A stretch of 64,000 bases of DNA from Deltaproteobacteria bacterium (lineage in GTDB: Bacteria > JAGRBM01 > JAHCIT01): positions 62,001 to 126,000 of the forward strand of contig JAHCIT010000005.1 of NCBI GenBank assembly GCA_026129095.1. Direction: 5' to 3'. Shown here in pieces: positions 1-51,037 of the stretch. The notes below the pieces were generated by a model. That model made no database searches and had not been told where the DNA came from. It worked only from the letters and a program-made list of their open reading frames with translations. Numbering within the stretch: position 1 is the stretch's first letter; every line of letters starts with the position of its first letter. Both the position numbers and the translations under genes were made by a program.

Positions 1-438
1 TTCGCCCATATTGGGGAAACGCCAGTCGTCGTCTTTCGGCAGATATCCCAGCACACGGCCGCCACCATTGCCTGAGCCACCGGTCTTTTCGGCTGCCTCG
101 AAGATTGTATCCCCCTTGAACACGCCATACGCGGCATCCTTGCCGCCACCTTCTCCGCTCCATGTTTGCCCGCCGGGGTTCTGTTCTTCGAGCATCTGGA
201 GGATGCGAATATCCCATCCATGCGGGTAACCGCCGTACGGCTTGGTCTCGACATTATTCCACCACATGTATTCCTGCCCCCGCGAGAACGTCCATGTGGA
301 CTTGCACGCCATGGTGCAGGTCTGACAGCCAATACAGCGGTTGATGTTGAATACGAAGGCAAACTGCGCGTCCGGATGCGCTTCCTCATGCGGGTAGCTC
401 ATCTCTCGGCCGATCTGCCAGTTTTGCACTTTAGGCAT
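1..438 (-). CDS. nxrB: NxrB/NarH-like Fe-S beta subunit of periplasmic nitrite oxidoreductase/nitrate reductase (N-terminal part; runs off window)
   Basis: Not in the ORF track (no stop inside window). Manual translation from ATG at 438 behind [78 protein letters not shown], matching Nitrospira/anammox-type NxrB N-termini. Confidence 0.93.
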
Positions 439-468
439 CGCTACTCTCCTTGGAGGATGACAAACTTG

Positions 469-717
469 TCAGCTGGACAGTCCGCCACCGCGGACCTGCC
501 CGATCACGTCGATCACAAACTGCTCTCCGTACTGCTGGAAAATGCGGTTGACACCGAGATAAAAGGGATCGCGGAAAAGCATGAGAAGCTCCTCGTCCGA
601 ATATCCCATCATCATGTATTCCTCGACGAAACATTCCGTCATTTTCCGGTCATCTCCGGGCACCAGCATGCCGACCATCTCGAACGGGTCTTCGACATCG
701 GGTTCATTCTTTGGCAT
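469..717 (-). CDS. Small acidic hypothetical protein between nxrA and nxrB
   Basis: 82-aa ORF filling the gap between the two subunit genes; AAAGAAA/GGTTG upstream, 6 nt after the nxrA stop. Confidence 0.8.
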   Translation of the reverse strand: MPKNEPDVEDPFEMVGMLVPGDDRKMTECFVEEYMMMGYSDEELLMLFRDPFYLGVNRIFQQYGEQFVIDVIGQVRGGGLSS

Positions 718-723
718 TTTCTT

Positions 724-3700
724 TCAACCTTTCCGGGTGAGCTCGCCAGCCAGATAGCGTTGCATCCATCCGGACTCGTTTCCGGGCATCATCCCGCGCC
801 TGGTGGGCGCAAACAGCCCTACTCCACCCAAGCCCCCATCTTCGGCCTTGGATACCTTGACCAGTGTCTCTTTCGGAACGGTGTTGACCGCGTGGTTGTC
901 GGCTTCGCCGCCAAACAGGTAGCTCATGTACACTTTGGCCTTGTGGAACAGGCTGTCGAGCTGATGCATCGGCATCAGCCAGCCCCGTGTGATCGACTGG
1001 TGGGATCCGTACCGGTAGTTCGACTGGTATCCCGTATCGAGTGACTGGGCCCGCCCGTCTGGGCGCGTTTCGGCCGCTTTCACGGTACGCTCGGTTGCCA
1101 TCCATGCACCGTGCTTGATCATCACTATTCCATACGGATAGGCAGGGTTGTATCTCGCCCGCAGCATCAGCCGGGAAACCCGGTAGAACGGGTCATCGGG
1201 TTTCCAACCGGTATACGGCCGGTCGGCGGGATTAGCGTCCACATACACGTAGTCCCCATCCTCAATGCCCATTTCCCTGGCTGCCTGCGGATTGATATGA
1301 ACCTGATGTTCACCAACGCCAGCGGCACGTTTGTCCAGCCGGTAGGGGTCACCAAAATCGTTGTTCCAGATGAAATGCCAGTCCGTCGTAAACCAGGAAG
1401 AATGGGTGGAATGCCGGGACTTCGGCGTAAGGCAGATAAACTTGTAGCCTTTCTCCCATAACGGGTTCTTTGTCTTTTTGACTTCCTTCCATGGCAGCCT
1501 GATGTTGCGGATCTGCCGCTCATCCGCACCCATGTGGCCGGGAGGAATCCCGTAATCCTCCGGACGAATAAAGGGATTCGAGCTGACAATAACGTTTGGC
1601 AGGTAGGGGGTCGCTTCCGGACCTTCCCTGTGAACAATGAAGTTCTCGCCGTATTCGATCACCTCGGGCTCATCGTTGTATGCCTGGAGACGGCCCGTTG
1701 GTGTGTAGAATGGCTGTGGATCGTGAATCTGCTCATAGAATGCCACTCTCGGATAGGTCCGGAAATTAAGAAGGGCGACGCCGGACTCCCCGTACTTGCC
1801 GGACATGATATCGGCGAGCTTGTAACCGCGTGTCGTGGTGGAAGAGTCGAGCAGACGCTGGATATAGGCATCCGTGGAACCTTCCAGAACGAACTTCCAC
1901 ATGTCCGCAAACCGCGACTCTCCAACGAGATCTCCTATCTTCTTCGACATCTCCGCCAGGATTCGCGCATCGTCGCGGGTGTCATAAACCGGAGCCAGCC
2001 CGCCCTTCCATATCTGCAGGAATGGATTGGAACAGGAGGCAGTGATTTCATGCACCTGCGCCTCGACCCATGAATTTGCTGCCAATGCAATGTCACAGTA
2101 TTCAATCGTCCCGTTCAGCTCGATATCGGTCGACATGATCAATTCGACATTCGGGTTTACGTTCTGGACCATCTCGTAAACCCACTTGGCGTTGTTGATC
2201 AGGTTGACATTGGTGAACCACATGACCTTGGTGGGCGTCGGCATATGGCTGTGTCCGGTGAATGATTTCCGGCCGTATTTGGGCGTATCAACCACTAGGG
2301 CCTTGTCGCCGTAATTCCAGTAGCCGGGTTCCTCGTCCTTCGAATACATATGAGCGTGGATCGACTTTCCATCTGCCGAGGGATCTAGGTTCAGCTCCCA
2401 CGGATCCTCACCTATCCAGCCCTTGAATCCGGGGCCTGACCACTTGGACCCCTGGAAAATTGCAGCCTTGTAGTTCCCCGCCCACGTGTAACTTCCGGCA
2501 CCCGGTTCACCGATATTCCCTGTAAGGATCAGTGGCAGATAGACCGCCCGGTTCATCTCCGTGGCATGAAACCAGTGATTCAGTCCTTCTCCTACATGGA
2601 TCGCCACCGGCTTGATGGTGGCAATGTCATTGGTCAGCCGCCGCACCAGTTCCTTGGGAGCACCGGTAATCTCATGGACCGAATCCAGGTCGTAATCCTT
2701 CAGGTGAAGCTTGTAGAGTTCGAACAGAGGATAAACTTCGGCCGTTTTCCCATCGAGAAGCTTTATCCTGAATTTCCCTTCAAGTGCGGCATCAATGCCA
2801 AGACTGTCATAGCGTGTGCCCACATCGTCACGGCTCACCGGGACAGCTGCGCCGGCTTTCATATCCCAGACCATGTAATCACCGAGCGTCTCACGTTGCT
2901 CTCTGGTCAGGCCCTGTTCCTTCATGGAGGGAGAGTCCGAAAGGTCCTTGGGCTTGTATCCTGGAATTACATCCGCCGGCTGAAGGCGCTTGAGCGTATC
3001 GGCACGAACCAGCAGCGGGAAATCCGAAAACCGCTTGATGAACGCCGGGTCGTATTTCTTTTCGTCGATCAGCAGCTTTGTGATCCCGAGAAGAAGCGCT
3101 GTATCACTGGCTGGCCGGACCGGAATCCAGTAGTCCGATTTTGTTGCCGGCGGCGAATATTCAGGGGTAATCGTCACTATCTTGGCGCCGCGCTCCATGC
3201 ACTCGATGAAAAAGTGGTTGTCGGCGCGCTTGTTTTCGACGAGATTCTTTCCGATCTGGATGTGCAGCTTGGTGACCCGCATGTCGTTCATGTCGCAGTC
3301 GGCCGCCTGGAGACCGTGAACGAACGGGTGGCCCGGCGCCTGGTCACCATGCCAGGTATAGTTCGACCAGACACGCCCGCCCTTGGCCTTTTCCGGCCCA
3401 ACTTTCCGGACCTTTGCATCAAGCAAGGCCAGACTGTTGCAAAACCGGTACATGCCGTATTTGCCAATGACTCCCAGAAGCCCCATGCCCCCGCGACACT
3501 TGAACAGCCGCGTTCCGGCCCCCTCCCAATGCTCCAGCATTTCCGGCTGATAGCCCTGATCCAGGAGCCGCTTTTTACCCTCTTCGCCGCTGTATTTCCC
3601 GGCGATATGGATCATCCCCTTGGCGGCATAGGTATAGGCTTCATCCCACGAGGCCCGGATGAACTGGTCCTGGCCGCGCGCATTGAACTTGTATTTGGTC

Positions 3701-4209
3701 TTGTTCGCTTCGGTGAGTTCGGGAAATCCGTCATCTGCCCATTCTTTCCAACCTTTCCGGATGATGGGGTGTTTCAGGCGGTACGGACCGTATACCCGGC
3801 GCTGGAACGTAAACCCGTTCGAGCAGCCGCGCGGATTCCATGCGTGGGACGCCTGGTTTCCGTACAGATCGGTGATGCGGTGACTGTCGTAGTTCTGCTC
3901 CGCCCGGATAAATACGCCGTTCCGGACAAACGCCCGCATCCGGCACTCGTGCGTGCAGTTTGGCGAGCATACCCATGAAAAATGGGAATCGTACCGGTAC
4001 TGGTCCAGGTAGACCTTTTCCCATCCCCGTGACGGATAGTGCCTGAGCGGATTGGCAATGTCCGTGGGCTGGAGAAATCCAAAAGAGAACCGTGGTGAGG
4101 CGAGCGCCGCAGCCGTACCGGCGGCAGCACCTTTAAGAAATTTGCGGCGGAAAATATCAGTTCCCAAGGGAAGTCTCCTCTTGCCGTGACTCCTGGTGCT
4201 GGCTGGCAT
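724..4209 (-). CDS. nxrA: Type II DMSO reductase family Mo-bisPGD catalytic subunit, periplasmic NXR/pNar clade (NxrA/NarG-like)
   Basis: Tat motif FRRKFLK; FS0 motif CSPNCTHEC...NPRGC; Mo-ligand region WSNYTWHGDQ; RGGMGLLGVIGKYG; C-terminal TPKSRHSTHS and NHAVNTVPKETLVK. Confidence 0.93.
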   Translation of the reverse strand: MPASTRSHGKRRLPLGTDIFRRKFLKGAAAGTAAALASPRFSFGFLQPTDIANPLRHYPSRGWEKVYLDQYRYDSHFSWVCSPNCTHECRMRAFVRNGVFIRAEQNYDSHRITDLYGNQASHAWNPRGCSNGFTFQRRVYGPYRLKHPIIRKGWKEWADDGFPELTEANKTKYKFNARGQDQFIRASWDEAYTYAAKGMIHIAGKYSGEEGKKRLLDQGYQPEMLEHWEGAGTRLFKCRGGMGLLGVIGKYGMYRFCNSLALLDAKVRKVGPEKAKGGRVWSNYTWHGDQAPGHPFVHGLQAADCDMNDMRVTKLHIQIGKNLVENKRADNHFFIECMERGAKIVTITPEYSPPATKSDYWIPVRPASDTALLLGITKLLIDEKKYDPAFIKRFSDFPLLVRADTLKRLQPADVIPGYKPKDLSDSPSMKEQGLTREQRETLGDYMVWDMKAGAAVPVSRDDVGTRYDSLGIDAALEGKFRIKLLDGKTAEVYPLFELYKLHLKDYDLDSVHEITGAPKELVRRLTNDIATIKPVAIHVGEGLNHWFHATEMNRAVYLPLILTGNIGEPGAGSYTWAGNYKAAIFQGSKWSGPGFKGWIGEDPWELNLDPSADGKSIHAHMYSKDEEPGYWNYGDKALVVDTPKYGRKSFTGHSHMPTPTKVMWFTNVNLINNAKWVYEMVQNVNPNVELIMSTDIELNGTIEYCDIALAANSWVEAQVHEITASCSNPFLQIWKGGLAPVYDTRDDARILAEMSKKIGDLVGESRFADMWKFVLEGSTDAYIQRLLDSSTTTRGYKLADIMSGKYGESGVALLNFRTYPRVAFYEQIHDPQPFYTPTGRLQAYNDEPEVIEYGENFIVHREGPEATPYLPNVIVSSNPFIRPEDYGIPPGHMGADERQIRNIRLPWKEVKKTKNPLWEKGYKFICLTPKSRHSTHSSWFTTDWHFIWNNDFGDPYRLDKRAAGVGEHQVHINPQAAREMGIEDGDYVYVDANPADRPYTGWKPDDPFYRVSRLMLRARYNPAYPYGIVMIKHGAWMATERTVKAAETRPDGRAQSLDTGYQSNYRYGSHQSITRGWLMPMHQLDSLFHKAKVYMSYLFGGEADNHAVNTVPKETLVKVSKAEDGGLGGVGLFAPTRRGMMPGNESGWMQRYLAGELTRKG

Positions 4210-5134
4210 GACCAGCTCCCGCAGTTGTGATCATGATTTCAAGCCGTTCCTGGCACTGGCCACAGATGGCGCCGTGAACATCGGGGTAAAATGTCCCGAT
4301 TGCGTCTTTCAGGATGCCCTTGTCCGGGATATCGCCGGTCATGACGAACTCGGCCGCAGGGAAACCGCAGAATCCACACTCACAAATAGCCCCGCTTCGC
4401 AGCCGGCGCCGCTGCTGCTGGAGTCCTCTTGCAGCCTCGGCAAGATGCTCATGTGTGATCGTCCGGTGTGCGTCCAGCCACGGCTGGAATTCGGCCGCCT
4501 GCCCCCCTGACAACTGGTCCAACACGGAAAGACGCTCGGCATATTTATCTGTGGCTGCCCAGCCCGCCTTCCGCATGCGGTAATCTGCGTAGAGGGCCCA
4601 CAATAGTGAGTATGCACGGGTGAGCTGCTGGACTTCTGCCGGGTGCCGGCCAGCAAACACCGCATCACCGGTATAGACAAACTCCGGATTTACAAGGTCC
4701 TGGAGCTGAAGCCAGCTGAACTTGAGAAATGAGTCCAGTTTTGCGCCGTCAGTCAGGCTTCCAGCTGTTATGTACAGTGCTGCCTGATTGTTTCCCGCGG
4801 AGGCGTCTTGGTTCCCGGGGAGATCTGCCCCCTCGTCTCCAGACTGGCGTGCCTGGAAAACGACGATTTTCCTGAGCCGCTTCGTGATGAGCGGAAAGTC
4901 CGCCAGGGATTCCTGAAAAACTTCGGGATACCCGAGTTTCTCGAATAATGAGTGGTATACAGTCCTGAATTTCGCTTCACGTACCGCGTCTACCGCCGTT
5001 TCTGCATATATCCTGTCGGCCTGTCGGCGAAAATCGGATTCAAGACGGTGAGCCAGCCGGTCGACAGCAGACCGGATTCGCAATTCGATCGCCGTCTCGA
5101 TCAGGAGAGGATCGAATTCGAAGTCTGTGCCCAT
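4157..5134 (-). CDS. Hypothetical protein with C-terminal CxxC...CxxC metal-binding motif; first gene of the nxr operon
   Basis: ATG at 5134 preceded by GGAGAGAGG (ORF extends to 5224); stop overlaps the nxrA start by 53 bp; CECGFCGFP...CGQC. Confidence 0.8.
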   Translation of the reverse strand: MGTDFEFDPLLIETAIELRIRSAVDRLAHRLESDFRRQADRIYAETAVDAVREAKFRTVYHSLFEKLGYPEVFQESLADFPLITKRLRKIVVFQARQSGDEGADLPGNQDASAGNNQAALYITAGSLTDGAKLDSFLKFSWLQLQDLVNPEFVYTGDAVFAGRHPAEVQQLTRAYSLLWALYADYRMRKAGWAATDKYAERLSVLDQLSGGQAAEFQPWLDAHRTITHEHLAEAARGLQQQRRRLRSGAICECGFCGFPAAEFVMTGDIPDKGILKDAIGTFYPDVHGAICGQCQERLEIMITTAGAGHASQHQESRQEETSLGN

Positions 5135-5240
5135 TCGCCTCTCTCCAAATGCACTCCCGGCAATAACCTCTACAGATGAAATATCCACAGAAAATACCGG
5201 CTTGGACTTCCTAGTTACCGACACCCCCGCGGCTCACGAT

Positions 5241-5254
5241 ATGACAGGTATCAT
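5241..5254 (-). promoter_or_regulatory. Possible FNR/DNR/CRP-family box upstream of the nxr operon
   Basis: ATGAT-ACCT-GTCAT on the minus strand versus consensus TTGAT-N4-ATCAA. Confidence 0.3.
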
Positions 5255-5448
5255 CATCAGAATAATGAAGAAGCGCGGTTTCCACGGACGTCGGTACAGA
5301 TTTGGAAAGACAAGAACTCTCCCTATGGATCCCTGACCGGGCTGATCTGAAATTTTTGGTGGAGGATCTCACCTCCGAATACCGGCCACTCGGAGCACAA
5401 GGAAGGTCACTCACCTGCCCCGCCTCATATCAGCCTTATGCCCCCACA

Positions 5449-5500
5449 GGGCGCACATGACTTTGCTTTTTTGTCCGGAAACCTACGAACTTCTACGAAC
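5449..5500 (+). repeat. att-proximal 52-bp repeat, copy 1, containing CTACGAAC twice at 10-bp spacing
   Basis: 50/52 identical to 13051-13102. Confidence 0.9.
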
Positions 5501-5539
5501 TGGCACGACGGTTTCCCCGTAACTGGAGAGGGTTAAAGG

Positions 5540-5590
5540 GCCGGACTCTTAATCAGCGGGTCGCCGGTTCGAGCCCGGCATCTCCCACCA
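5540..5590 (+). pseudogene. 3' half of tRNA-Lys(CTT); putative attR
   Basis: GACTCTTAATCAGCGGGTCGCCGGTTCGAGCCCGGCATCTCCCACCA has anticodon loop, T-arm and CCA, but no D-arm and a broken 5' anticodon stem. Confidence 0.85.
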
Positions 5591-5878
5591 CACCTTCCCC
5601 CGGCAGCTAAACCCCCGGTATCCCTGTCAGATTGCAGGAATGGGTCCATTACGGCCGGTTCCGGCCAAGACCGCCCGAACTCCTGAAAAACGGGAGCGGA
5701 TGACTTTGGGACAGCGTTTTCGCTGGCAAGCGGGGCTGGTCTTGTGACCTTCCCACAGAGAGCAGGTACAGTTTTTGGGGTGAGGTTGAGACTGGCACCG
5801 CACCAGTTGGTCCATGTTATACGAGTATACGGCTTTCGGTGATTACTCCCGCGAGCCCGAAAGCAGGCGGCCGTAAGC

Positions 5879-6136
5879 GTGAAAACCCCGTCTTCAGTCT
5901 TCAATGATCTCTCAAGATGGCTGGAAGCCTGTGGATGCAGTTTCTCCGGAGAAGAAGTTGGCCGTCTTATTGACCAGGCACTCGACCACCACGAATCCCC
6001 GCAGGTTCTGGTCTCGGCAATTCTCGATCGTTGCTCTGCATTCGACGAATACAACGGAGAACTGCTCTTCCAGTCCGTTTTTGCTCTCTGGAACGACAAG
6101 GCCCGGGAATGGAACCGGGCCCGGCGGTTCAACTAG
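5879..6136 (+). CDS. Small hypothetical protein
   Basis: 85-aa ORF converging on and overlapping the activator stop; no motif recognised. Confidence 0.45.
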   Translation: MKTPSSVFNDLSRWLEACGCSFSGEEVGRLIDQALDHHESPQVLVSAILDRCSAFDEYNGELLFQSVFALWNDKAREWNRARRFN

Positions 6137-7634
6137 GCTCCTCATCAACCCGGACCCCGGAACGAATCAGCCGGTTGTGAAGCGTGGTCCGGGGGATCCC
6201 CAGCAGCCGTGCGGCCTGGGACAGGTTTCCGCCTGACAGGTCCAGTGCCCTGCGAACGAGAGCCAGTTCGAATTCCGCCAATGTCCGGTCCAGATCGAAC
6301 GATCCCCCGAAGTCAGAATCCTTTACCTCGATAATAACCGTCCTGCTGACGGTTGATGGCCGGGCGGCTTCCGCGTCGATGTGGATCACATCAGGCGGTA
6401 TCCGGCCTGACTGGACCGTAATCATCGCCCGTTCAAGGACGTTTTCCAGTTCCCGGACGTTTCCCGGCCAGCCATATTCGCTCATCCGCCTGATCGCCTC
6501 GCTGTCGATGCCAGTGACCGACGTCCCTAGCCGGTTATTCAGCTTCTCAACAATCGCTCTCGCAAGCATTGGCAGGTCATCAATGCGCTCGCGAAGCGGC
6601 TTGAGTTCAACCGGATAGACGGAGAGACGGTAGTACAGATCCTGCCGGAAGCGGCCAGCTTCAACCTCTGCGAGCAGATTCCGGTGCGTCGCCGCAATGA
6701 TACGGCAGTCGCTCCGTTCGGCCCGTTCGGCTCCGACCGGCAGATATTCACGGTTCTGAATCGCCCTGAGGAGCTTCACCTGGATTTCGAGCGGCGCCTC
6801 GCCGATCTCGTCGAGAAACAGCGTGCCACCGCGTGCGACCGAGAATGCCCCCTTGCGCGACTGGGTGGCGCCGGTAAACGAACCCCGCACATGGCCAAAC
6901 AGTTCGCTCTCCACCAGATCCCTGGGCATGGCGGCAAGATTGATTGAAACAAACGGCCCCTTGGCCTTCTGGCTCAGAACGTGGATTATCCGTGCGGCCA
7001 CTTCCTTTCCCGACCCCGTTTCTCCCTGAAGCAGAACAGTCGTCGGAAACGGTGCCACAGTTTCAATCGCGGCAACCACATTGGGGTCCAGATCTTCTTT
7101 CCGGACAAGAATATCCGCCGCCTGAAGGAGCTCATCGGTCAGGTGGACCTTCACGGGTTCCGGCCGGTGCTTCCAGTTGTGCAATGCATCCAGCCGCCGG
7201 AACAGAACAGACTCGGCCGTTGGGATGCACAGATAGTCCCTGAACCCCACATCAAGAGCCCGCCGGGCCAGTGCCATTTCCTCATGAGACAGGCAGGCGA
7301 GTCCCGGCGAAATTCTCAATGCCTCGACCAGAGAACCGGAAATATCCTGTTCCCGCTCCAGGATGCAGACCCAGATTTCGCCCGGATGGACGGGTAGCGG
7401 ATTCAGCACTTCGCGAAGGGAACGGAAGGGCTCGCCCCGCATTCCGGCCCATCGGTTGGCCGATATTTCAAGTGACCGGCTCTGTCCCACAAACAGCACA
7501 AAGAAATCCTTCGACGAAAAACCGTCAGGCAGGACAACAACATCGCCCAGAAGTGGATATTTTGGATGATCTGGAGAGATATATAAACCCGAAATCTGTA
7601 TTACTTCCAGATAGTTACAAAAAGAGACATTCAC
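6129..7634 (-). CDS. Sigma54-dependent activator (degenerate receiver-like N-terminus, AAA+, Fis-type HTH); true start may be downstream
   Basis: GETGSGKE, ESELFGHVRGSFTGA, LFLDEIGE, FRQDLYYRL, WPGNVRELEN, GNLSQAARLLGIPRTTL. Confidence 0.93.
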   Translation of the reverse strand: MNVSFCNYLEVIQISGLYISPDHPKYPLLGDVVVLPDGFSSKDFFVLFVGQSRSLEISANRWAGMRGEPFRSLREVLNPLPVHPGEIWVCILEREQDISGSLVEALRISPGLACLSHEEMALARRALDVGFRDYLCIPTAESVLFRRLDALHNWKHRPEPVKVHLTDELLQAADILVRKEDLDPNVVAAIETVAPFPTTVLLQGETGSGKEVAARIIHVLSQKAKGPFVSINLAAMPRDLVESELFGHVRGSFTGATQSRKGAFSVARGGTLFLDEIGEAPLEIQVKLLRAIQNREYLPVGAERAERSDCRIIAATHRNLLAEVEAGRFRQDLYYRLSVYPVELKPLRERIDDLPMLARAIVEKLNNRLGTSVTGIDSEAIRRMSEYGWPGNVRELENVLERAMITVQSGRIPPDVIHIDAEAARPSTVSRTVIIEVKDSDFGGSFDLDRTLAEFELALVRRALDLSGGNLSQAARLLGIPRTTLHNRLIRSGVRVDEEPS

Positions 7635-7649
7635 GGCATCCTTTTTGAG
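7634..7649 (+). promoter_or_regulatory. Putative sigma54 -24/-12 promoter for the ligase operon
   Basis: CGGCATCCTTTTTGAG: GG-N10-GA versus TGGCAC-N5-TTGC (the -12 C is replaced); about 40 bp upstream of the ATG at 7690. Confidence 0.4.
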
Positions 7650-7689
7650 CTTGTCCCCTCAACCGCACTTCCCCGCGATGGAGGGTTCG

Positions 7690-10581
7690 ATGCCTTTCGA
7701 CCAGAGTGTTAACGGACCCTTTCCCGGACTGGCGGCCATACCATTAACGCTGGCCAATCCCGACGGAAATCCGGCTACCGCACTGCTGGATATACCGGAA
7801 ATGGCGGACGGGCCCTTGATTCCGGTTCTCGTGCCGCCAGTATTCGGACGTCCGAAAGAGGAACTTGGGCCCGTATCAGAGGCTCTCACGGCCCAAAACC
7901 GATTTATCGTGTTCCGGCCTGCATTCCGGTCCACAGGTGACGAAGCTCCCGGCAATCTCGATGACATGTATCTGTCGGGAGAGGAATGCACCTACTGGGG
8001 CCGGTATCTCAGGTCAGAACAGTTCCATACGCTCTGCCGGAACAGGCAGCCAGACATCCAGATCGATACCCGTGTTGCCTGTGTGGCCATGTCCATCGGG
8101 GCCACACAGGCATTTCTGTCCCAGGCCGAACACCAAACTTTCGATGCGCTTGCCCTTCTGTCCTTCGTTCCCCACTACCCGACATTCGTCCGGAACAAGG
8201 TCAAACGCGACTACTACGACCTCGTATCGATCGCCTGGGCACTTCGGATGAAGTCACGGCCCGGCTGGGCCGCCTGTTGCGGGGCAATTGCCGCCCGCAA
8301 AGCCGAAGAAGGCGAAGACCGAGAGACGGCCCGGCGGTATCAGCTGCTGGCAGACCGACTCTCCAACACCTCCAGAATCGACCGGAGCCAGATGGCCTCG
8401 ATGCTCGAAGGAGTGCCGGTCAACGCCTTCTCCGGCATCTGGAATGCCATTCGTGGCACTTTTGATTGCCGCTATGATCTTGAGGCGAATCTGCAGTCGA
8501 ACGCCAAAGTCGGGATTCCGCTTACCTTCATATCCGGCGGCAAGGATGACTACTTCCTGCAGGAAGAGATGGACGAATTCATTGCCCTGGCACGCCGTGA
8601 AGGCCGCGTCCGGCGGCTGCTCCGCCTTGAGAATGCCTGTCACCAGCTCCGTCCGTATCCCTGTTTCGAAAAAGCCATGGAGTTTGTCATCCAAGGGCTA
8701 TATAGCGATCTTGGAATTCAGGACGTACCTGTTCCGTTCTCACTAGCAAGAATAGCGGTCCGCCGGTTTTACGAGGTCCGGGGATTCGCCCTGCGCCATT
8801 CCAAAGACCTGGGCGCACCACCGGAGTTGACCCAAAAGGTTCTGCTTTCCAGCGAGGATCTCGCCCGGGTACTCGGGGAACTGTTCAAGCGCCCGGCAGA
8901 AACCGGCGCACTGGTCCGGCTGCTCGCCAGATCAGCGGAACAGATCGGTGGCGAACGGAGCATTCTCGACGAACTGGAACCGGTCCGGATAGGAAAGATC
9001 CTCAACAAATCGCTTTCACCGGAATTGTACCCTTCCATCGCAATAGGACTCTCTGAAGTTCCCGAACTGATCGGCCATCTGTTCCCAGACCATCTGCTTC
9101 AGGCGCTGGATCCGGAACACCTGGATGGATTGCTCCAGGAATTGCTCCGCCACACAGAAGCACTGGAAGCGTTCCTGACCACGGCAAATCCGGAACTGCT
9201 GCTCTCTCTTGGCAGGCGCAAGGCCCTCGCAGCCGCGCAACGTGCGATAAAACTGGTACCGGCTTTTACTGGACACAATCTACCGAAGGATCTCGATCAG
9301 GTTCCGTTCACCAGCAAGGAAGACTATGTCGAGGCGTTCCCGCTCGAAGACAGGTGCATCCACCGGGAACTTCCGCGGGAAGGGCTCATCGATGAATCGA
9401 GCGGTTCCAGCGGAATCCCAACCAACTGGACCCGTTGCCGCGAGGAGGAAGACCGGCTCGCAAACGGTGCCCGGTTCATCTACCGGTTCCTCTTTGGCCG
9501 TCCCGGTGACGACCGCCCGGTAATTCTGCTCAACGGTTTCAGTCAAGGTGCCTGGGCGACGTCAACCAAGCTAACCGTGCTCGCCCGCCATGTGGCACTC
9601 GTCAAGAATATCGGCCCGGAAGAAGAGCGTATTCTGGATTCCCTCGAGTACTTCGGCCGCCGTTACCGTTACATTATCGCCGGGTATCCGCCGTTTCTGA
9701 GGGAACTTGTCCGGGCCGCCACGGAACGGGTGGGGTTTGATTTGAAACCATATACCATCGATATCCTGCATGGCGGCGAAGGCTATACGGCCGGATGGCG
9801 ACGTTATCTTGAAGTGAATCTGGGATCGGGTGCCCGGATCGTGTCTTCATACGGTGCCTCGGATCTTGATCTCGGCGTTGCATACGAAACCACCCTCGCC
9901 CTCGTGGCCAGAAAAATACTGGAGGAAAACCCTGAGTTCCGCCGGGCCCTTCTGGAGACAGAGCGGATTCCGGTGTTTTTCGGCCAATATAATCCGATAG
10001 AGTTCTTTCTGGAAACCCGCCGCCACGACGGAGAATGCAGGACCCTCGTCTGCACCGTGACTAATCTGAAAGCGCACCAGCCCCGCATCCGTTACGATAT
10101 CGGAGACGAAGGGGATATCCTCCCATTTGACCGGATTGTAAACACGGCAAGGGAGTTCGGATTCGACCTGCCAGCATCAGGTTCCCTGAAGTTTCCGTTC
10201 GTCTACATATTCGGCCGTCTCGACGGGACCATCAGCATTGACGGTGCGAATGTTTATCCCGACCAGGTGCACGAGGCGATCCTGACCGATCATCAGCTGG
10301 CTCCCCTGGTCCGCGGCTTCCGTCTACGCCGTTCGGAAAACAGTTCCGGAGAAGTGCGATTCGAAATCGATCTGGAAATGTTCGGGGATGAGACAACGGG
10401 TGGCCCTGATGTCAGCACGGTTGCGGGCAAGCGGATATGCGATTATCTTGCGAAAGTGAACATAGATTTCCGTGAATCGCTGGCTCATAACCCGGCAGCC
10501 ACCAGTCCGGAAGTCAGGGTAGTCCGACCGGGTGAACTGGGAATCGGCACGACCATCAAACGCCGGTATGTGGATCGCTAA
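7690..10581 (+). CDS. Fusion: LuxD-like alpha/beta-hydrolase (acyl-thioesterase/transferase) + helical linker + PaaK/LuxE-like adenylate-forming ligase
   Basis: GGAGGG RBS before ATG 7690; triad-like VAMSIG / GKDDY / ACHQL; C-terminal PFTSKEDY, SSGSSGIP, AGYPPFL, GGEG, SYGASD, RYDIGD, GRLDGTISIDGANVYP. Confidence 0.8.
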   Translation: MPFDQSVNGPFPGLAAIPLTLANPDGNPATALLDIPEMADGPLIPVLVPPVFGRPKEELGPVSEALTAQNRFIVFRPAFRSTGDEAPGNLDDMYLSGEECTYWGRYLRSEQFHTLCRNRQPDIQIDTRVACVAMSIGATQAFLSQAEHQTFDALALLSFVPHYPTFVRNKVKRDYYDLVSIAWALRMKSRPGWAACCGAIAARKAEEGEDRETARRYQLLADRLSNTSRIDRSQMASMLEGVPVNAFSGIWNAIRGTFDCRYDLEANLQSNAKVGIPLTFISGGKDDYFLQEEMDEFIALARREGRVRRLLRLENACHQLRPYPCFEKAMEFVIQGLYSDLGIQDVPVPFSLARIAVRRFYEVRGFALRHSKDLGAPPELTQKVLLSSEDLARVLGELFKRPAETGALVRLLARSAEQIGGERSILDELEPVRIGKILNKSLSPELYPSIAIGLSEVPELIGHLFPDHLLQALDPEHLDGLLQELLRHTEALEAFLTTANPELLLSLGRRKALAAAQRAIKLVPAFTGHNLPKDLDQVPFTSKEDYVEAFPLEDRCIHRELPREGLIDESSGSSGIPTNWTRCREEEDRLANGARFIYRFLFGRPGDDRPVILLNGFSQGAWATSTKLTVLARHVALVKNIGPEEERILDSLEYFGRRYRYIIAGYPPFLRELVRAATERVGFDLKPYTIDILHGGEGYTAGWRRYLEVNLGSGARIVSSYGASDLDLGVAYETTLALVARKILEENPEFRRALLETERIPVFFGQYNPIEFFLETRRHDGECRTLVCTVTNLKAHQPRIRYDIGDEGDILPFDRIVNTAREFGFDLPASGSLKFPFVYIFGRLDGTISIDGANVYPDQVHEAILTDHQLAPLVRGFRLRRSENSSGEVRFEIDLEMFGDETTGGPDVSTVAGKRICDYLAKVNIDFRESLAHNPAATSPEVRVVRPGELGIGTTIKRRYVDR

Positions 10582-10613
10582 CGGACTGGCATCATTGAGG
10601 AGATAGGCAGGCA

Positions 10614-12272
10614 GTGAACCTCCAATCAGCCATCCTGCTACTGCTTGGAATCTCCCTCATTCCGCTGGCGGGCTATGTCTACAGGTTTGCTCACGACCGG
10701 GCCGAGGCACGCTGGTTTGCTCTGGGAGTCGTTGCGGCGTCTACTTATCTCATGGCCATCGCCATGATCGATCTGGCCCCATCTGACCGGGCAGCCCTTT
10801 GGGCCACCCGTTTGGCTTATGCAGGCCCCAGCATCGGCTTCCCCGCGATGATCCTGCTCGTCCGCAGAATCCTTCTGGCTACAGACGCCTCCCGGTCACT
10901 GTCAGCATTGCTGTTTCTGGCCTCCATCGCCGCCCACTCATTCGCCCTGTTTGGCGGCTCGGTGATCTCCGGAATCGACCGGACGACCATGCCCCCATCC
11001 TTTGTCTACGGACCATTCGCAATTGTCCCGCTGTCTTTCGATGCCGGAATACTCCTGTTTCTGGTTGCCGTCGTCATACGTGACTGGCCCAAGGCACCTT
11101 GGAGAGCCCAGAACCGGTTTCTCGTTCTGGTTGTTTCCCTGATCCTCTGGACGTTTTTCACCATCACTTCCAACCTGGTCCTGCCCATTCTCTACGGAGA
11201 TAACCGGTACTATCTGGTTGGCCCTGCCCTGCTTTTGCTTCCCGCCTGCGGCGGCGCCTGGGTCATTGCAGGAGAGCGGCTGCCGGATCTGCTTGCAATG
11301 GCAGGCCGGCTGTTCCCAAACGGGCGTTCCCGGTTGCTTCGGAAACTCGCCGATCTGGAACAGGGCCTGCTTGAGTTGCCAGACATTCATGCTCTCGTTT
11401 CAGAACTGGAGGGAGTGATGGGAGGCCGGCAGTTTGCCTACGCAGGAGCCGGAGACGGACTCAGCTTTACCCCGGGAGCCGTGGATTTTCTATACAAACC
11501 CGGTGACCGGCAGCGTGTCGAGAAACTGGCGAGCCATTACGCCCATTCTCCGGAAACCCTGGATGAAAACCTCCTGCTGACCGGATGGACGGAAGTTATC
11601 GGCTTTGCCGAGCCTGTAGCCTCTCCGTGGCCCGTCTCTTCTGCCCGGGAGATCGAGGTGATAAACAGGATGACCACCTCTCTCGCGGCTGAACCAGTGG
11701 TGATCCTTTCCGCAACAGGATATCTCGATACGATTTCCATCAAGTCCCTTGCCAAACAGGTCCGGCGAAGCCTGGTCTTCACGGCTGAACTGGTCGCAAA
11801 ACTGGATGGCGGCCGCGAGGATGCGGTCCGGTTGCTGAAGGAAGAACGGAACCTCAGGGATGTCATGATTGTCATCCGGCTGGCGGAGCAGGCCCGTGCC
11901 GAACATCTGGAAACCACGGTTTCCGCCTGTGTCTCAGATGGAGCCAAGCTCCTGCTCGTTACTGCTATGGACCGGAACGATCTGATTGGATACGGCCTCT
12001 TCGGCGGTACGGATATCAATCTTCAGGAAGCTCCCCTCTTCGCCTTGGGCAGTCCGCTGCAACGGGCTTCCAACATATCGGTCCATCTGGATCTCATTCT
12101 TTCCCGGCTCGAAGCCAGCTACGGCACCTTCTTCCGCCTGACGCCGGAAGAGAGACACTCGTTCTGCCGCCGGCAGTGGCGGTCAATCCAGGAACTGGAG
12201 TTTGAACTGGAAAAGCATCTGCTGATGTTCCGTTTTTCCCCTTCGGCAAGCCAGAAAGGAATACCCGTATGA
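10614..12272 (+). CDS. Membrane protein with about 7 N-terminal TM helices (HisKA_7TM-like) and a degenerate cytoplasmic AAA-like domain
   Basis: First ~220 aa hydrophobic; C-terminus resembles the sigma54-activator AAA lid; GAGGAG RBS; stop overlaps next start (ATGA). Confidence 0.7.
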   Translation: MNLQSAILLLLGISLIPLAGYVYRFAHDRAEARWFALGVVAASTYLMAIAMIDLAPSDRAALWATRLAYAGPSIGFPAMILLVRRILLATDASRSLSALLFLASIAAHSFALFGGSVISGIDRTTMPPSFVYGPFAIVPLSFDAGILLFLVAVVIRDWPKAPWRAQNRFLVLVVSLILWTFFTITSNLVLPILYGDNRYYLVGPALLLLPACGGAWVIAGERLPDLLAMAGRLFPNGRSRLLRKLADLEQGLLELPDIHALVSELEGVMGGRQFAYAGAGDGLSFTPGAVDFLYKPGDRQRVEKLASHYAHSPETLDENLLLTGWTEVIGFAEPVASPWPVSSAREIEVINRMTTSLAAEPVVILSATGYLDTISIKSLAKQVRRSLVFTAELVAKLDGGREDAVRLLKEERNLRDVMIVIRLAEQARAEHLETTVSACVSDGAKLLLVTAMDRNDLIGYGLFGGTDINLQEAPLFALGSPLQRASNISVHLDLILSRLEASYGTFFRLTPEERHSFCRRQWRSIQELEFELEKHLLMFRFSPSASQKGIPV

Positions 12273-12712
12273 CCCCAGCGCAAGGCGAAAAGATCTATCA
12301 ACTCCGGACCAAACTCGGACTCACTCCCCAGCAATTTGGACGCATGGCCGGAGTAACGGCGGTGGTTGTTGCCAAATGGGAATCCGGTTTTGCCGAACCC
12401 GGCTGGCTGGCGCTCGGCCGGATAAGACGCGCCTGCGACGTCGACCTCAACTGGCTGCTGGACAGCGGCGATGACCGGCCGGACTATCTCCAAAACGCTG
12501 CCATCTGCGAGGGGAAGCTCGTCGATTCATCACTCCCTAAAATCAGCCGGAATCTCGAGCAAAAACTGATTGGCGACTACCGCAAGCTGAACGAAATCGA
12601 CAGGAGCTTCGTCAGAATGGTTCTGGAAACAGTCGGGAAAACTCCAGAAGTACCTGTGGCCAGGAGGTCGTCTCCCAAATTGCGCCCAAATCCATCAGAC
12701 AAGTTTGTCTAA
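12269..12712 (+). CDS. XRE-family HTH transcriptional regulator
   Basis: LRTKLGLTPQQFGRMAGVTAVVVAKWESG...VDLNWLL. Confidence 0.88.
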   Translation: MTPAQGEKIYQLRTKLGLTPQQFGRMAGVTAVVVAKWESGFAEPGWLALGRIRRACDVDLNWLLDSGDDRPDYLQNAAICEGKLVDSSLPKISRNLEQKLIGDYRKLNEIDRSFVRMVLETVGKTPEVPVARRSSPKLRPNPSDKFV

Positions 12713-13050
12713 ACGACCACCGTCACAGCCTTTGGATACAAATGGTCCCTTAATCCCATTCCCGGTCTTAAATAGAACCGGTTTCATGAATGCCTGGGGA
12801 GGATCAGGAGTAAAGTTTGGCAGATGAAGCCGAAGAAGTTTTCCGGATAAAACTCCGTGCCTGGCAAACATTTTTCAGAACCAGCCGATTCAGGCGAACA
12901 GGCGCTCGATATGCGGCGAAACCCCGCTCGCCATAGCCGCCGGAGAAAAACCTCTCCACCTCGTCGTTATCGGACGTGGCGCAAAGCCGCTGGTGGCTGT
13001 CTGTAAAGCGATCAAGACCAGCGAACATCTTTTCGTCGTCTCGGTTCGCC

Positions 13051-13102
13051 GGGCGCACATGGCTTTGCTTTTTTGCCCGGAAACCTACGAACTTCTACGA
13101 AC
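13051..13102 (+). repeat. att-proximal 52-bp repeat, copy 2
   Basis: 50/52 identical to 5449-5500. Confidence 0.9.
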
Positions 13103-13148
13103 CTTGAGAATTACTGATATTTCTGGCCGCAGTTCGCGGAATGCCAGT

Positions 13149-13194
13149 GCCGGACTCTTAATCAGCGAGTCGCCGGTTCGAGCCCGGCATCTCC
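13149..13194 (+). pseudogene. Second 3' fragment of tRNA-Lys(CTT); putative attR, lacking CCA
   Basis: 45/46 identical to 5540-5585. Confidence 0.85.
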
Positions 13195-13203
13195 TGTCGC
13201 AAG

Positions 13204-46173: not shown

Positions 46174-46250
46174 GGGTCGCTAGCTCAGCTGGTTAGAGCA
46201 TCTGCCTTTTAAGCAGAGGGTCCCGGGTTCGAGTCCCGGGCGACCCACCA
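46174..46250 (+). tRNA. tRNA-Lys(TTT)
   Basis: Full cloverleaf GGGTCGC...GCGACCC-ACCA; anticodon arm TCTGC-CTTTTAA-GCAGA. Confidence 0.97.
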
Positions 46251-46296
46251 CTTTAAAGCCATTCTAAGACCGATTTCAGTTTCAGCCGATATGCTG

Positions 46297-46316
46297 GAGC
46301 AACCATAGAGCAACCA
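46297..46316 (+). repeat. Putative integrase arm sites, left (GAGCAACCA x2)
   Basis: Copies at 46297 and 46308; same pair at 50853 and 50864. Confidence 0.75.
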
Positions 46317-46668
46317 GACGGCTCCGTTACTACCGAACACCCAGGATCACTCCCGAACGACCCCACCACCGGGGGAAAAAAACCGCCCCCTTGCACAAAT
46401 AGTTCAACCTGGGTTCCCCCCCGAGGGGTGAAAAAATGGGATTTTCGCCGTAATTCCCGCCGGGGTTATCTCTTTCGGGGTTATCCCCCCGCCCGGAAAA
46501 ATAATTACGGAGCCGCCGGAAATTACCGGAGCCAGGTTATTCCGGCGGGGCAGATTGCCACCTTGCCGTTCCGTTCAGGTATCACACGCTAAAAGCCGGT
46601 TCCGGCAACTTACCGGCAGGTCCAGGTTGCGGGACTGGCGCCCCGGGCCGGTTAGCCCACTCGAAACG

Positions 46669-48150
46669 TCAACTTTGCAACTTGTCCGTTTCAGAGTGCC
46701 CCGCGTCATCCGCCGGGAGCGACCACCACCAGCCGCCTTGCCCCCGGTTGCCCTCGCTCCGGCGTTCCTTCCGGCATCCGAGCGCCCGGAAAACCCGGCG
46801 GACGGTCTTGTCACCGTGACCGAGGGCACGGGCGGCCTTGAACAACTCGCTAGATTTCTTGGGACCGTCCGACAACTGTTCTTCCACGAATTGGCGGGCC
46901 TCTTCCCGTGCGCTCCGTTCCTCGCTGGTGGCCTCGGGCGCGAGCAGGTCATGGGCCTGAAGATCGGTTTCGCCGGTCCACTGGAACCGTCCGTCCGCCA
47001 GCGAAAAGGTCAGTGATTTACCCGGCGCGGAACAGGACGCCTTGACGTGGGCAATGACCCGGCCGGCCGGGTTATCAGGCAGCGGCGCAACCAGCAGTTG
47101 CGAACGGGCCGCCGCCGTGAAGTCTATTGAGCCGAGCCCCCGGTATAACGCCGCGTCCTTCGCCTGTTTGCCGAGGTGCCGGATGAGCACGATGGCGCAC
47201 CCGTGCTTTTGGGCCAGCCCGGAGAGGGTGTCCAGAACGGGCCGGACCTCGTTCGCCTTGTTCATATCCACGTTCGGCCCGAGAAAACTCTGCACCGGGT
47301 CCACCACGGCCAGCGCCGGGCGGACTTGGGAAAGGTGCCGGTCGAGAAACGCCACGTCCTGAAGGGAGAACGTGCCGAGCCGCTTTCCCTCCGTCCGCTT
47401 CCCCTGAAGGGCGAACACCCTCGAAGGTTCGCCGCCGTAGGCTTCCAGTCTCGGGCGGATCGTATCGGCCAGCCCGTCCTCGCGGGTCATGTAAAGGGTA
47501 CTTGACGGTTCCCGCCCCGCCGTGTCGCCGGGCAGCGTACCGCCACGGGAAAGGGCCGCCGCTATCTGGAGCAAGAGCGAGGTTTTCCCGCAGCCCGGAT
47601 TGCCTTCAACGATGGTCAGCTTCCGCACCGGGAGAAACGGATTCCACAGGTATTCGACCGTTTCCGGTTCCACGTCCGCCAGACAGACCAGTTCAGACTC
47701 GCCGGAGCCCGGCGGCTGAAGCGCACCGCCAAGCTCCTGGAGTTCCGCCAGAAGCGGCGATACATCCTCACCTTGCCGGTTTCCGTCAATGGCCTGCCGC
47801 AGCAGCCGGTCCCGCTCCCGGTTGGACTTCAGCCGGGCCAGCGTTTCCAGCTTGCCCGGCAGTTCAACGGCGCTCACGGCTTCGGCTTCCAGTTCCGCCA
47901 GAAACGAATGAACGCCCTGAAGCATTTCCCCGCGAAGGGTGATCCGCCGCCCGAGGTTCACCGGGTCAATCGCTTCCCCGGACTCCCGAAGCTCCCGCAT
48001 CGCTTCAAAGGCTTCCCGGCAATGGGCGTGCGTGAACACCTCGGGCGCGATTTCACCGGCACGGTCCAGCCCGGCAGGGTCCAGCAGGATCATGCCGAGA
48101 ACCGCCTTTTCCGTCGCCTCGTCGGCAAGGTGCGGATTCCCGGGCGTCAT
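46669..48150 (-). CDS. DnaB N-terminal-like domain fused to RepA/AAA_25-type helicase
   Basis: EKAVLGMILLDP...F....R..FEAM..L...GEAIDPV; Walker A GNPGCGKT; VVDP; RHLGK; GLGSIDFTAAARS. Confidence 0.85.
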   Translation of the reverse strand: MTPGNPHLADEATEKAVLGMILLDPAGLDRAGEIAPEVFTHAHCREAFEAMRELRESGEAIDPVNLGRRITLRGEMLQGVHSFLAELEAEAVSAVELPGKLETLARLKSNRERDRLLRQAIDGNRQGEDVSPLLAELQELGGALQPPGSGESELVCLADVEPETVEYLWNPFLPVRKLTIVEGNPGCGKTSLLLQIAAALSRGGTLPGDTAGREPSSTLYMTREDGLADTIRPRLEAYGGEPSRVFALQGKRTEGKRLGTFSLQDVAFLDRHLSQVRPALAVVDPVQSFLGPNVDMNKANEVRPVLDTLSGLAQKHGCAIVLIRHLGKQAKDAALYRGLGSIDFTAAARSQLLVAPLPDNPAGRVIAHVKASCSAPGKSLTFSLADGRFQWTGETDLQAHDLLAPEATSEERSAREEARQFVEEQLSDGPKKSSELFKAARALGHGDKTVRRVFRALGCRKERRSEGNRGQGGWWWSLPADDAGHSETDKLQS

Positions 48151-48404
48151 ACGGCAGTTCTCCCTCTGTCCGTCAACCTGACCGCTGGAAATTTGTATAA
48201 GGGATGAATACAGAATTGAACCAGTCCGTCCTTCTCAAGCGCCTTCAATATCGCTGTGAGCCTGGTGTTCGTCAAAGACCCACCTAGCGAGTCTCGCACC
48301 GACTCGATGGATATATCATCGTTTCGCCCGCCCAATTGACGTATCCTGATCAGGACGTGTTGCTGGATCACAAGATCGAGCGAACTGTTCCGCGTGCGTT
48401 TCAT
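48147..48404 (-). CDS. Small winged-helix-like protein
   Basis: 85 aa; ILKALEKDGLV...VRLTDRG; ATGA overlaps on both sides. Confidence 0.65.
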   Translation of the reverse strand: MKRTRNSSLDLVIQQHVLIRIRQLGGRNDDISIESVRDSLGGSLTNTRLTAILKALEKDGLVQFCIHPLYKFPAVRLTDRGRTAV

Positions 48405-48628
48405 GACCGCCCCTTTCCGGCGGCCCGGGCCGCCGCGTCAGAGGTGGAAGTAACGAGCCGTTCAGCAACCCATGAGTCCAGGTCCTCGGGCCGGTAGCGG
48501 ACAATGCGGTAACCCGCCTTCACGTAACGGGGGCCGCCTCCACGGTGACGCCACGCCTCAAGGCACCTTGCAGTGAGCCCGAGCCGTTCGGCGGCCTGTT
48601 TGGGTTTTAAAAATGTGTTGTCTGGCAT
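48401..48628 (-). CDS. Excisionase/AlpA-like HTH protein
   Basis: FLKPKQAAERLGL....LEAWRHRGGGPRYVK.G..VRY...DLDSW. Confidence 0.9.
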   Translation of the reverse strand: MPDNTFLKPKQAAERLGLTARCLEAWRHRGGGPRYVKAGYRIVRYRPEDLDSWVAERLVTSTSDAAARAAGKGRS

Positions 48629-48725
48629 AATCGGAGCATCCTTTCGTCCAGCGGTAGGCGCTGGTTCTGATGCTCGATTGTGCCGGGTTTCGGGGCGGAG
48701 ATCGCTGTAAGAAACTGCACCTGTT

Positions 48726-49604: not shown

Positions 49605-49608
49605 CAGT

Positions 49609-50808: not shown

Positions 50809-50838
50809 GCGAGCCGCCTTCCCGTCCCCGTGTCCGGC

Positions 50839-50872
50839 TGGTTGCTCGGCTGGAGCAACCACGGAGCAACCA
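50839..50872. repeat. Putative integrase arm sites, right
   Basis: TGGTTGCTC (inverted copy, 50839) and GAGCAACCA at 50853 and 50864. Confidence 0.75.
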
Positions 50873-50988
50873 CACGGCATGATTTCACGTGCGGGAACGT
50901 GCTTTCAATATGAGGCACCTTTCGGCATTTTTGCAAGCAATTTGTAGGGGTTATCGTATTTGGAAGGGTCTGGAAGGGTCACGAAACC

Positions 50989-51037
50989 CTGCCTTTTAAG
51001 CAGAGGGTCCCGGGTTCGAGTCCCGGGCGACCCACCA
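50989..51037 (+). repeat. attR: duplicated 3' 49 bp of tRNA-Lys(TTT)
   Basis: Identical to 46202-46250; preceded by TGGAAGGGTC x2 (50961-50980). Confidence 0.95.

Follow-up and report, generated by a model that had tools for sequence, protein, structure and literature searches.

A nitrite oxidoreductase operon as the probable cargo of an integrase-less unit in a tandem tRNA-Lys(CTT) island array

Among described integrative elements, the ssrA islands of Dehalococcoides, including the vinyl-chloride reductase island, lie in tandem downstream of a small-RNA gene; direct repeats of the 3' end of that gene form their borders, with conserved bases flanking the repeat and a respiratory oxidoreductase operon as cargo (PMC3146451). 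Fifteen of the Dehalococcoides islands have no integration module, and it was proposed that these are cis-mobilizable elements which move by accretion (McMurdie et al. 2011, PMC3146451). Streptococcal cis-mobilizable elements (CIMEs) carry no integration or transfer genes, retain both attL and attR, and are found in tandem with an integrase-encoding element of the same specificity; the excision and cis-mobilisation of these conjugation-linked elements of Firmicutes have been demonstrated by experiment (Guedon et al. 2017, PMC5704250). A tandem at a tRNA-Lys gene of S. agalactiae is described in the same source among the streptococcal integrative and conjugative, and integrative and mobilizable, elements (PMC5704250). 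In ordinary tRNA-gene islands (Islander/TIGER type), a direct repeat of the tRNA 3' end marks the distal boundary. Phylogenetic trees have been taken as evidence that the periplasmic nitrite oxidoreductase (NXR) was transferred horizontally between Nitrospira, Nitrospina, anammox bacteria and numerous uncultured phyla (PMC12758564, PMC6050957). The present analysis concerns an NXR-type operon at the left edge of a 64,000-nucleotide stretch of a deltaproteobacterial metagenome-assembled genome (MAG; GCA_026129095.1, contig JAHCIT010000005.1; the whole stretch is hereafter called the window), together with E3, the segment that the operon occupies between two tRNA-Lys(CTT) 3' fragments.

The NXR operon is likely to be the whole cargo of E3, an integrase-less unit of a tandem tRNA-Lys(CTT) array. 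By its structure, the locus belongs to the tandem tRNA-gene island arrays and contains a CIME-like unit, its notable part being the NXR cargo; among the papers listed by a non-exhaustive literature search, made without supplementary files, none reported NXR on a defined integrative element. Judged by analogy of layout, the tandem ssrA islands of Dehalococcoides are the closest described counterpart, although they combine an ssrA target with a 20-bp repeat and a CcrB-like serine recombinase (PMC3146451), whereas the present array combines tRNA-Lys(CTT), a 47-nt core and arms of ~100-150 nt with a tyrosine integrase, an excisionase, phage terminase genes and NXR cargo. From its sequence E3 also fits the structural definition of a CIME, as attL/attR-type ends are kept and integration and transfer genes of its own are absent. 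In contrast to the streptococcal CIMEs, however, the partner element looks phage-derived, conjugation genes are lacking but for an ArdC-N-like domain in the neighboring segment E1, and the evidence for mobility is one metagenomic contig.

Architecture of the tRNA-Lys(CTT) array

The genome (G000) is a 23-contig MAG of 3.67 Mb and 96.65% completeness, and the window corresponds to positions 62001-126000 of its contig C19. Window positions 5544-5590 on the plus strand reproduce positions 30-76 (with CCA) of tRNA-Lys(CTT) at 47/47 bases, the sole gene for this tRNA in the genome being located on another contig (C14, c[90..165]). No tRNA was called by ARAGORN in window 1-12000 and no tRNA match was obtained there with Rfam at E<=10, as expected because the gene is truncated. 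Five such 3' fragments were identified on C19, all on the plus strand and within 39 kb, and none elsewhere in the 3.67 Mb. The cores of the five fragments (f1 to f5) and the arms delimiting E3 and the next segment, E4, are as follows.

C19 36617, plus strand: core f1, exact 47-mer
C19 40723, plus strand: core f2, exact 47-mer
C19 57396, plus strand: core f3, exact 47-mer
Window 5544-5590, plus strand: core f4, exact 47-mer
Window 13153-13199 (C19 75153), plus strand: core f5, last and degenerate, 42/47 bases with five substitutions
Window 5413-5543, plus strand: right arm of E3 (P-arm-like), conserved before all five fragments
Window 5591-5745, plus strand: left arm of E4 (P'-arm-like), 84-93% identical to the 89 nt after the intact tRNA and to the f1-f3 left arms
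Window 13051-13152, plus strand: right arm of E4, from the alignment of the junction copies

An earlier reading of the window, made from the sequence only, had placed the start of the operon about 400 bp left of a tRNA 3' fragment with att-type flanking repeats. Both observations are borne out: the likely operon start (window 5134) lies ~410 bp left of f4, which matches tRNA-Lys(CTT) at 47 of 47 bases, and the repeats are real and larger than had been implied, forming a ~300-bp unit present at five junctions. This unit (window 5413-5717) recurs at four other C19 sites with 81-95% identity, always on the plus strand; the junction repeats differ from each other by 5-19%, and their longest exact shared stretch is 95 nt. 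The junction layout consists of the right arm of the left-hand segment, the 47-nt core and the left arm of the right-hand segment, and is attP-like. The right arm (~110-130 nt), which contains an invariant direct repeat, CTACGAAC-TT-CTACGAAC, precedes all five fragments and is absent upstream of the intact tRNA. The left arm (~80-155 nt) follows f1-f4 and also the intact tRNA, and none follows f5, while identity between the fragments and the tRNA gene begins exactly at the first core base. An 18-nt motif of the right arm occurs five times in G000, each time at a junction, once in G001, a genome of the sister genus in the same family, and not at all in G002-G005; with 0 copies found for the reversed pattern as a control, this count is far beyond chance. 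The array ends at f5, to the right of which lies native-looking chromosome of typical composition (tetranucleotide distance at the 1.7th-2.5th percentile).

The array probably reads tRNA(attL)-E0-f1-E1-f2-E2-f3-E3-f4-E4-f5-chromosome, with at least five segments spanning at least 75 kb. E0, the leftmost segment, is treated below; the contents of the remaining segments are as follows.

E1, 4.1 kb: ArdC-N-like protein and unknown proteins
E2, 16.6 kb: histidine kinases, response regulators, a GGDEF protein and a sigma-54 activator
E3, C19 57443-67543, 10.1 kb: filled by seven NXR genes, none of them a recombinase
E4, window 5591-13152, 7.6 kb: sigma-54 activator (6129-7634, minus strand), HTH_3 protein (12269-12712, plus strand), proteins of 978 and 552 aa, and a doubtful open reading frame (5533-6132, minus strand); no recombinase

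In sequence comparisons, the segments share their terminal arms only. At the ends of E3, 34 nt separate the left arm from the moaA stop codon, and the right arm is found 280 nt upstream of orf355, the first gene of the operon. A search of the whole genome with PF00589 gave no match in E1-E4, and the integrase nearest to E3 is a tyrosine integrase in E0 (C19 18643-19944), 38 kb leftward, preceded by a 72-aa excisionase-like helix-turn-helix reading frame; recombination functions are encoded by E0 only. The check for an integrase advised in the sequence-only reading thus gave none in E1-E4 but an integrase and an excisionase in E0. This segment also encodes a P-type ATPase, an outer-membrane efflux protein, an RND pump and an IS3 transposase, and a homologue of the PHROG large terminase (E 1.2e-62) and a ParB-N/DNA-methyltransferase gene adjoin its right arm. 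The core and arm were also sought near the integrase, in C19 15300-18700 and the G001 equivalent, and only chance 9-12-mers were found.

A related module in G001 points to the provenance of the att system. In that genome tRNA-Lys(CTT) is followed by left-arm-like sequence, and on another contig (L028 4621-10036) an integrase (44% identity), the terminase homologue (75%), a 142-aa protein (72%) and the ParB-methyltransferase (79%) precede a junction made up of right arm, fragment and left arm, with a terminal fragment 1.1 kb further on. The counterpart module in G000 occupies C19 31679-36616 and likewise ends in a right arm. The conservation of this module between the two genera suggests that the att system belongs to a decayed prophage or phage-satellite-like element.

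The GC content of E3 is 0.571 (9.9th percentile of 354 10-kb windows) and that of C19 1-15400 is 0.536 (0.6th percentile), the entire left part of C19 being low in GC. The latter region encodes ABC1 kinases, Coq4, a patatin-like lipase, an aldehyde dehydrogenase and a flavin monooxygenase; its DNA is 78-88% identical to a G001 contig and largely missing from G002, and from its composition and distribution it is probably mobile cargo. In E4, the 978-aa and 552-aa proteins (window 7645-12272) are adjacent, match no Pfam or PHROG family and stand beside the sigma-54 activator, the 978-aa protein having a weak PaaK-like tail.

The sequence-only reading had expected an intact tRNA-Lys(CTT) to the left of the window. 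None is present in the 67.5 kb of C19 left of f4, which hold three further fragments, and the intact gene is located 89 bp from the end of the separate 13.5-kb contig C14. At its terminus C14 matches f1 and the adjoining E1 left arm over 136 nt with 100% identity, as compared with 84-93% for the other left arms, and this agreement gives good support to a probable link between the array and the intact tRNA gene. Two readings of the C14 end are available: part of the population may have the tRNA directly beside E1, with E0 absent or excised, or E0 may start with an identical arm and the piece that follows may be missing from the bin. The proposal that the operon lies inside an integrated element holds insofar as it is foreign DNA tied to tRNA-Lys(CTT); what encloses it, however, is a tandem-array unit without integrase and not a self-contained island. 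A region of contig C21 (207.7-217.5 kb) was weighed as a candidate for the absent left end of the array and rejected, since neither a tRNA nor an arm adjoins the gene boundary at which its similarity begins. This region (207688-217474) has 82-90% DNA identity to the sequence downstream of the G001 tRNA-Lys(CTT), is not beside a tRNA in G000, and looks like a module common to the two genera at a different site.

A simple island of the ordinary type is found in the same window at tRNA-Lys(TTT) (46174-51037). It comprises an intact tRNA (46174-46250, plus strand), an exact 3'-end repeat of at least 45 nt (50993-51037, plus strand) and, just inside this distal repeat, a 423-aa tyrosine integrase (49609-50880, minus strand). 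The geometry proposed for the NXR locus, an element to the left of a plus-strand 3' fragment, agrees with that of this island. The tRNA-Lys(TTT) island is nevertheless a single 4.8-kb unit with its own integrase beside the distal repeat, whereas E3 has no integrase and is one of several tandem units.

The array probably arose from site-specific recombination that took place repeatedly at the 3' end of tRNA-Lys(CTT). Successive integrations of circles carrying one attP type would yield junctions of the form right arm-core-left arm, f5 would be the displaced original end of the tRNA, and the intact tRNA followed by a left arm only would represent attL. Under this mechanism the E0 integrase would act on the sites of E1-E4, and E3 would have entered as a circle or could still leave as one.

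The NXR operon and its relatives

The NXR-type genes are all on the minus strand and run leftward beyond window 1-5224. Seven genes form the operon, here in transcription order.

Window 4157-5224, minus strand: orf355, operon gene 1, 355 aa; likely start at residue 31, window 5134 (Atlas record), giving 325 aa
Window 724-4209, minus strand: nxrA, molybdopterin catalytic subunit, 1161 aa, PF00384
Window 469-717, minus strand: orf82, small acidic protein between nxrA and nxrB, 82 aa
C19 61161-62438 (5' part at window <1-438), minus strand: nxrB, 425 aa, Pfam Fer4_11 and NCBIfam DMSO_red_II_bet
Left of the window, minus strand: NarJ/TorD-type chaperone, 255 aa
Left of the window, minus strand: gamma subunit, a cytochrome c-nxrC fusion joining a diheme cytochrome c (two domains) to an EB_dh/NxrC heme-b domain, 561 aa
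Left of the window, minus strand: moaA, 369 aa, TIGR02666 above its cut-off

Residues 19-1159 of NxrA align with NxrA of Kuenenia (PDB 7B04_B) at 1794.9 bits, the second-best alpha subunit in the PDB, that of perchlorate reductase, reaching only 209.8 bits. A twin-arginine motif, FRRKFLKG (residues 20-27, with RR at 21-22), aligns with the Kuenenia signal, and the match to TIGR01409 is weak (17.1 bits against a cut-off of 16.7 bits, E 0.0053). NxrB matches its Kuenenia counterpart (PDB 7B04_A) at 608.7 bits, and the C-terminal half of the gamma subunit, a protein with two CxxCH motifs and a hydrophobic anchor at the C terminus, matches PDB 7B04_C at 116.5 bits. By these matches the cargo of E3 is a complete exported periplasmic NXR of the Nitrospira/Nitrospina/anammox type, a group of the type II dimethyl sulfoxide (DMSO) reductases. 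The operon resembles NXR-ABC of Kuenenia stuttgartiensis (PDB 7B04) in having full-length matches for all three subunits and a twin-arginine translocation signal on NxrA. It differs in the fusion of an N-terminal diheme cytochrome c to NxrC and in the membrane anchor at the C terminus of this subunit, in being a compact seven-gene operon whereas a cluster of 15 genes is described for Kuenenia (PMC12758564), and in a host without anammox context. Neither a sigma-54 promoter nor a sigma-70 promoter was found between the att site and the operon.

The two remaining proteins, orf355 and orf82, are uncharacterised and travel with the NXR subclade of this genome. For orf355 no Pfam, NCBIfam or PDB match was obtained; it has no signal peptide, carries Cys-rich motifs at the C terminus, and is placed by the Atlas in unnamed clusters of Planctomycetota, Methylomirabilota and Omnitrophota. 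A homologue with 32-37% identity is located upstream of nxrA in G005, a genome from the other family of the phylum, and in the uncultured MAG L035. For orf82 no Pfam or NCBIfam family was found, and its position is kept in 5 of 7 related loci (tblastn, 35-56% identity).

The distribution of the operon is patchy in the phylum, of which the collection searched contains only six species genomes. A full-length relative of NxrA is found in none of the three same-family genomes (83-99% complete) and in one of the two from the other family (G005, 80% identity), that is, in 2/6 genomes of the phylum. In G005 the seven genes follow the G000 order with identities of 32, 80, 56, 75, 52, 52 and 53%, and they are situated amid genes whose G000 orthologues belong to contig C4; neither an att motif nor a tRNA is close to the G005 module. 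Relatives of NxrA were detected in 228 of 234 candidate stretches of genome_contigs, the best 80 having 57-76% identity and coming from many phyla, and in 256 of 266 candidate stretches of metagenome_contigs, where the best reaches 73%. A FastTree phylogeny of NxrA was built from 83 rows (G000, the partial G005 sequence, G008 and all 80 genome_contigs rows, with none dropped). It unites G000 with G005 (local support 96) and then with L035 (99), and this group falls within a 19-row clade in which Nitrospinota, Planctomycetota, Acidobacteriota and Marinimicrobia are mixed; the G000 sequence is nested among Nitrospinota, Scalindua and Brocadiaceae rows. Outside the phylum the operon has its closest relative in L035, which carries orf355, nxrA, orf82, nxrB, the chaperone and the gamma subunit at 37-76% identity (NxrA 76%); none of the flanking genes of L035 exceeds ~32% identity to any part of G000.

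Horizontal acquisition of NXR by the G000 lineage is well supported by these comparisons, and may have come about through a single event in the order or through separate events in G000 and G005. The horizontal spread proposed in the sequence-only reading agrees with the 0/3 same-family and 2/6 phylum distribution, the different locus in G005 and the unrelated flanks in L035. None of the 80 NXR loci of genome_contigs matched the four junction queries in BLAST searches for att arms near them, and none has a tRNA-Lys(CTT). The att pattern had 0 matches in metagenome_contigs and 0 in viral_contigs, collections in which the G000 lineage may be unrepresented.

Some further observations were made among the NXR loci of other genomes. 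In a Planctomycetota MAG (L036 19916-22169), a 16-tRNA cluster lies ~6.5 kb downstream of the NXR operon. Identical NxrA sequences occur in MAGs labelled Bacteroidetes and Neomarinimicrobiota (L068/L070), and near-identical ones in MAGs labelled Phycisphaerae and Pseudomonadales (L085/L086); conflicts of binning or labelling are a likelier source of these matches than recent transfer.

Mobility and alternative explanations

For evidence on whether E3 is mobile at present, Logan contigs of four runs from three studies were mapped to C19 56501-76500. Two of the runs, X1 and X3, are possibly the source samples, and X5 is another sample from the study of X1 with ~5x depth; parts left uncovered in X5 and X6 are no evidence of absence. 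Contigs of the four runs reproduce the interiors of E2, E3 and E4, their arm-adjacent ends and the right flank with 0-1 differences. In X5, one 970-nt contig (depth 5.7) joins the right end of E3 (10682-11011 in the numbering of the mapped locus) to its left end (864-1503). The joint steps back by 10148 nt, the exact f3-f4 spacing, and the 95 nt that fit both sides are the exact stretch shared by f3 and f4. The X5 joint could represent circular E3, a tandem E3-E3 or an artefact of the k=31 graph, and is a lead and not a proof. No exact contig for the E4 left arm was found in X5 over 11103-11155.

The evidence weighing against a tandem array with E3 as a mobile unit concerns both its assembly and its history. 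The X1 and X3 contigs end at every att repeat, and the segment order receives no independent support from them. The head-to-tail joint was seen in one of the four runs, as a single contig of depth 5.7, and a k=31 graph could yield it from a linear array if coverage of the competing branches were missing; the listed contigs of the four runs include no E2-E4 (empty) junction. The first bases of C19 have no left arm and no contig joins C14 to C19, with the left arm sought in vain at the C19 start and at other contig ends besides that of C14; as the tRNA is also off the contig, at least one piece between C14 and C19 must be missing or unbinned. An unrecognised recombinase may be encoded among the family-less proteins of 401, 421, 978 and 552 aa in E1, E2 and E4. 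An empty site was not recovered: the C14 flank maps to G001 contig C3 without a tRNA, the C14 and C19 flanks are not syntenic in the sister genus, and no same-genus genome was compared. For the tRNA-Lys(CTT) genes of G001 and G002, the G000 orthologues of the neighboring genes are on contig C23. Finally, the 80% identity between the G000 and G005 NxrA proteins is within the ~64-85% range of other orthologues of these genomes, so that the two may instead have been inherited from a common ancestor of the order.

This last point is the core of an alternative in which the ancestor of the order already had NXR and passed it on vertically, with loss in the other lineages and later enclosure as unrelated elements integrated around it. 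The sister relationship of the two NxrA proteins (support 96) and the identical seven-gene order would agree with such a history, as would the unexceptional identity of 80%. Yet E3 has element-type arms at both of its own ends, which trapped native DNA would not have, and the G005 copy is in a different neighborhood. Moreover, the accessory genes are only 32-56% identical, L035 NxrA is nearly as close (76%) despite unrelated flanks, and the module was not found in 4/6 genomes of the phylum; vertical descent is accordingly considered unlikely. Still less probable is an artefact of assembly or binning, in which 300-bp repeats would have made the assembler chain non-adjacent pieces. The genome is indeed a 23-contig MAG, Logan contigs break at each repeat and C14 ends inside a repeat, but the repeats are 5-19% divergent and share at most 95 exact nucleotides, a length that ordinary read pairs can bridge. 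Contigs of the four runs match the interiors and arm-adjacent ends with 0-1 differences, and the regular distribution of arms, in which f5 has no left arm and the tRNA no right arm, is unlike random chaining; even if the order were wrong, E3 would keep both arms.

The tRNA-like pieces might also be copies of a dispersed tRNA-derived repeat, whether similar to miniature inverted-repeat transposable elements, similar to short interspersed nuclear elements or regulatory, that is unrelated to integration at tRNA genes. That no intact tRNA is present on C19, and that the junction units are short and have no clear coding sequence, would be compatible with such a repeat. All copies, however, are on one strand and within 39 kb, with none elsewhere in 3.67 Mb, the left arm follows a real tRNA gene, and the last copy has decayed as the displaced end of a gene would. 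In addition, an integrase and an excisionase are present, and the sister genus has the same layout, so that this explanation is regarded as very improbable.

Physiology and implications

Four genes of the COX1 family (heme-copper oxidases) were identified in G000, whereas no match for the RuBisCO large subunit or for bd oxidase was obtained in this genome. These results agree with an aerobic or microaerobic way of life in which no carbon is fixed through the Calvin cycle. In such an organism NXR might make nitrite available as a further electron donor or might work as a nitrate reductase, a choice that neither the sequence nor the oxidase and RuBisCO data decide; the sequence-only reading had likewise held that the direction of the reaction cannot be read from the sequence. 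The enzyme is described as reversible in Kuenenia (PMC12758564).

A more far-reaching and rather doubtful extension is that the integrase-less segments, far from being dead relics, are exchangeable cassettes, excised and re-inserted in trans by the phage-derived E0 with its integrase, excisionase and terminase, and that the NXR module would move as a 10-kb circle, which would explain its spread to many phyla. If this were true, the tRNA-gene array would work like an integron for operon-sized metabolic modules.

With the operon read as the cargo of E3 within the tandem array, the catalytic and electron-transfer subunits, the chaperone and a cofactor gene are packed between recombination sites, and the segment would be a physical vehicle for the known spread of NXR. 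Movement of NXR would thereby become testable by PCR and recombination assays, and the presence of nxrA in a MAG should be taken with caution as a marker of a nitrite-oxidising lineage.

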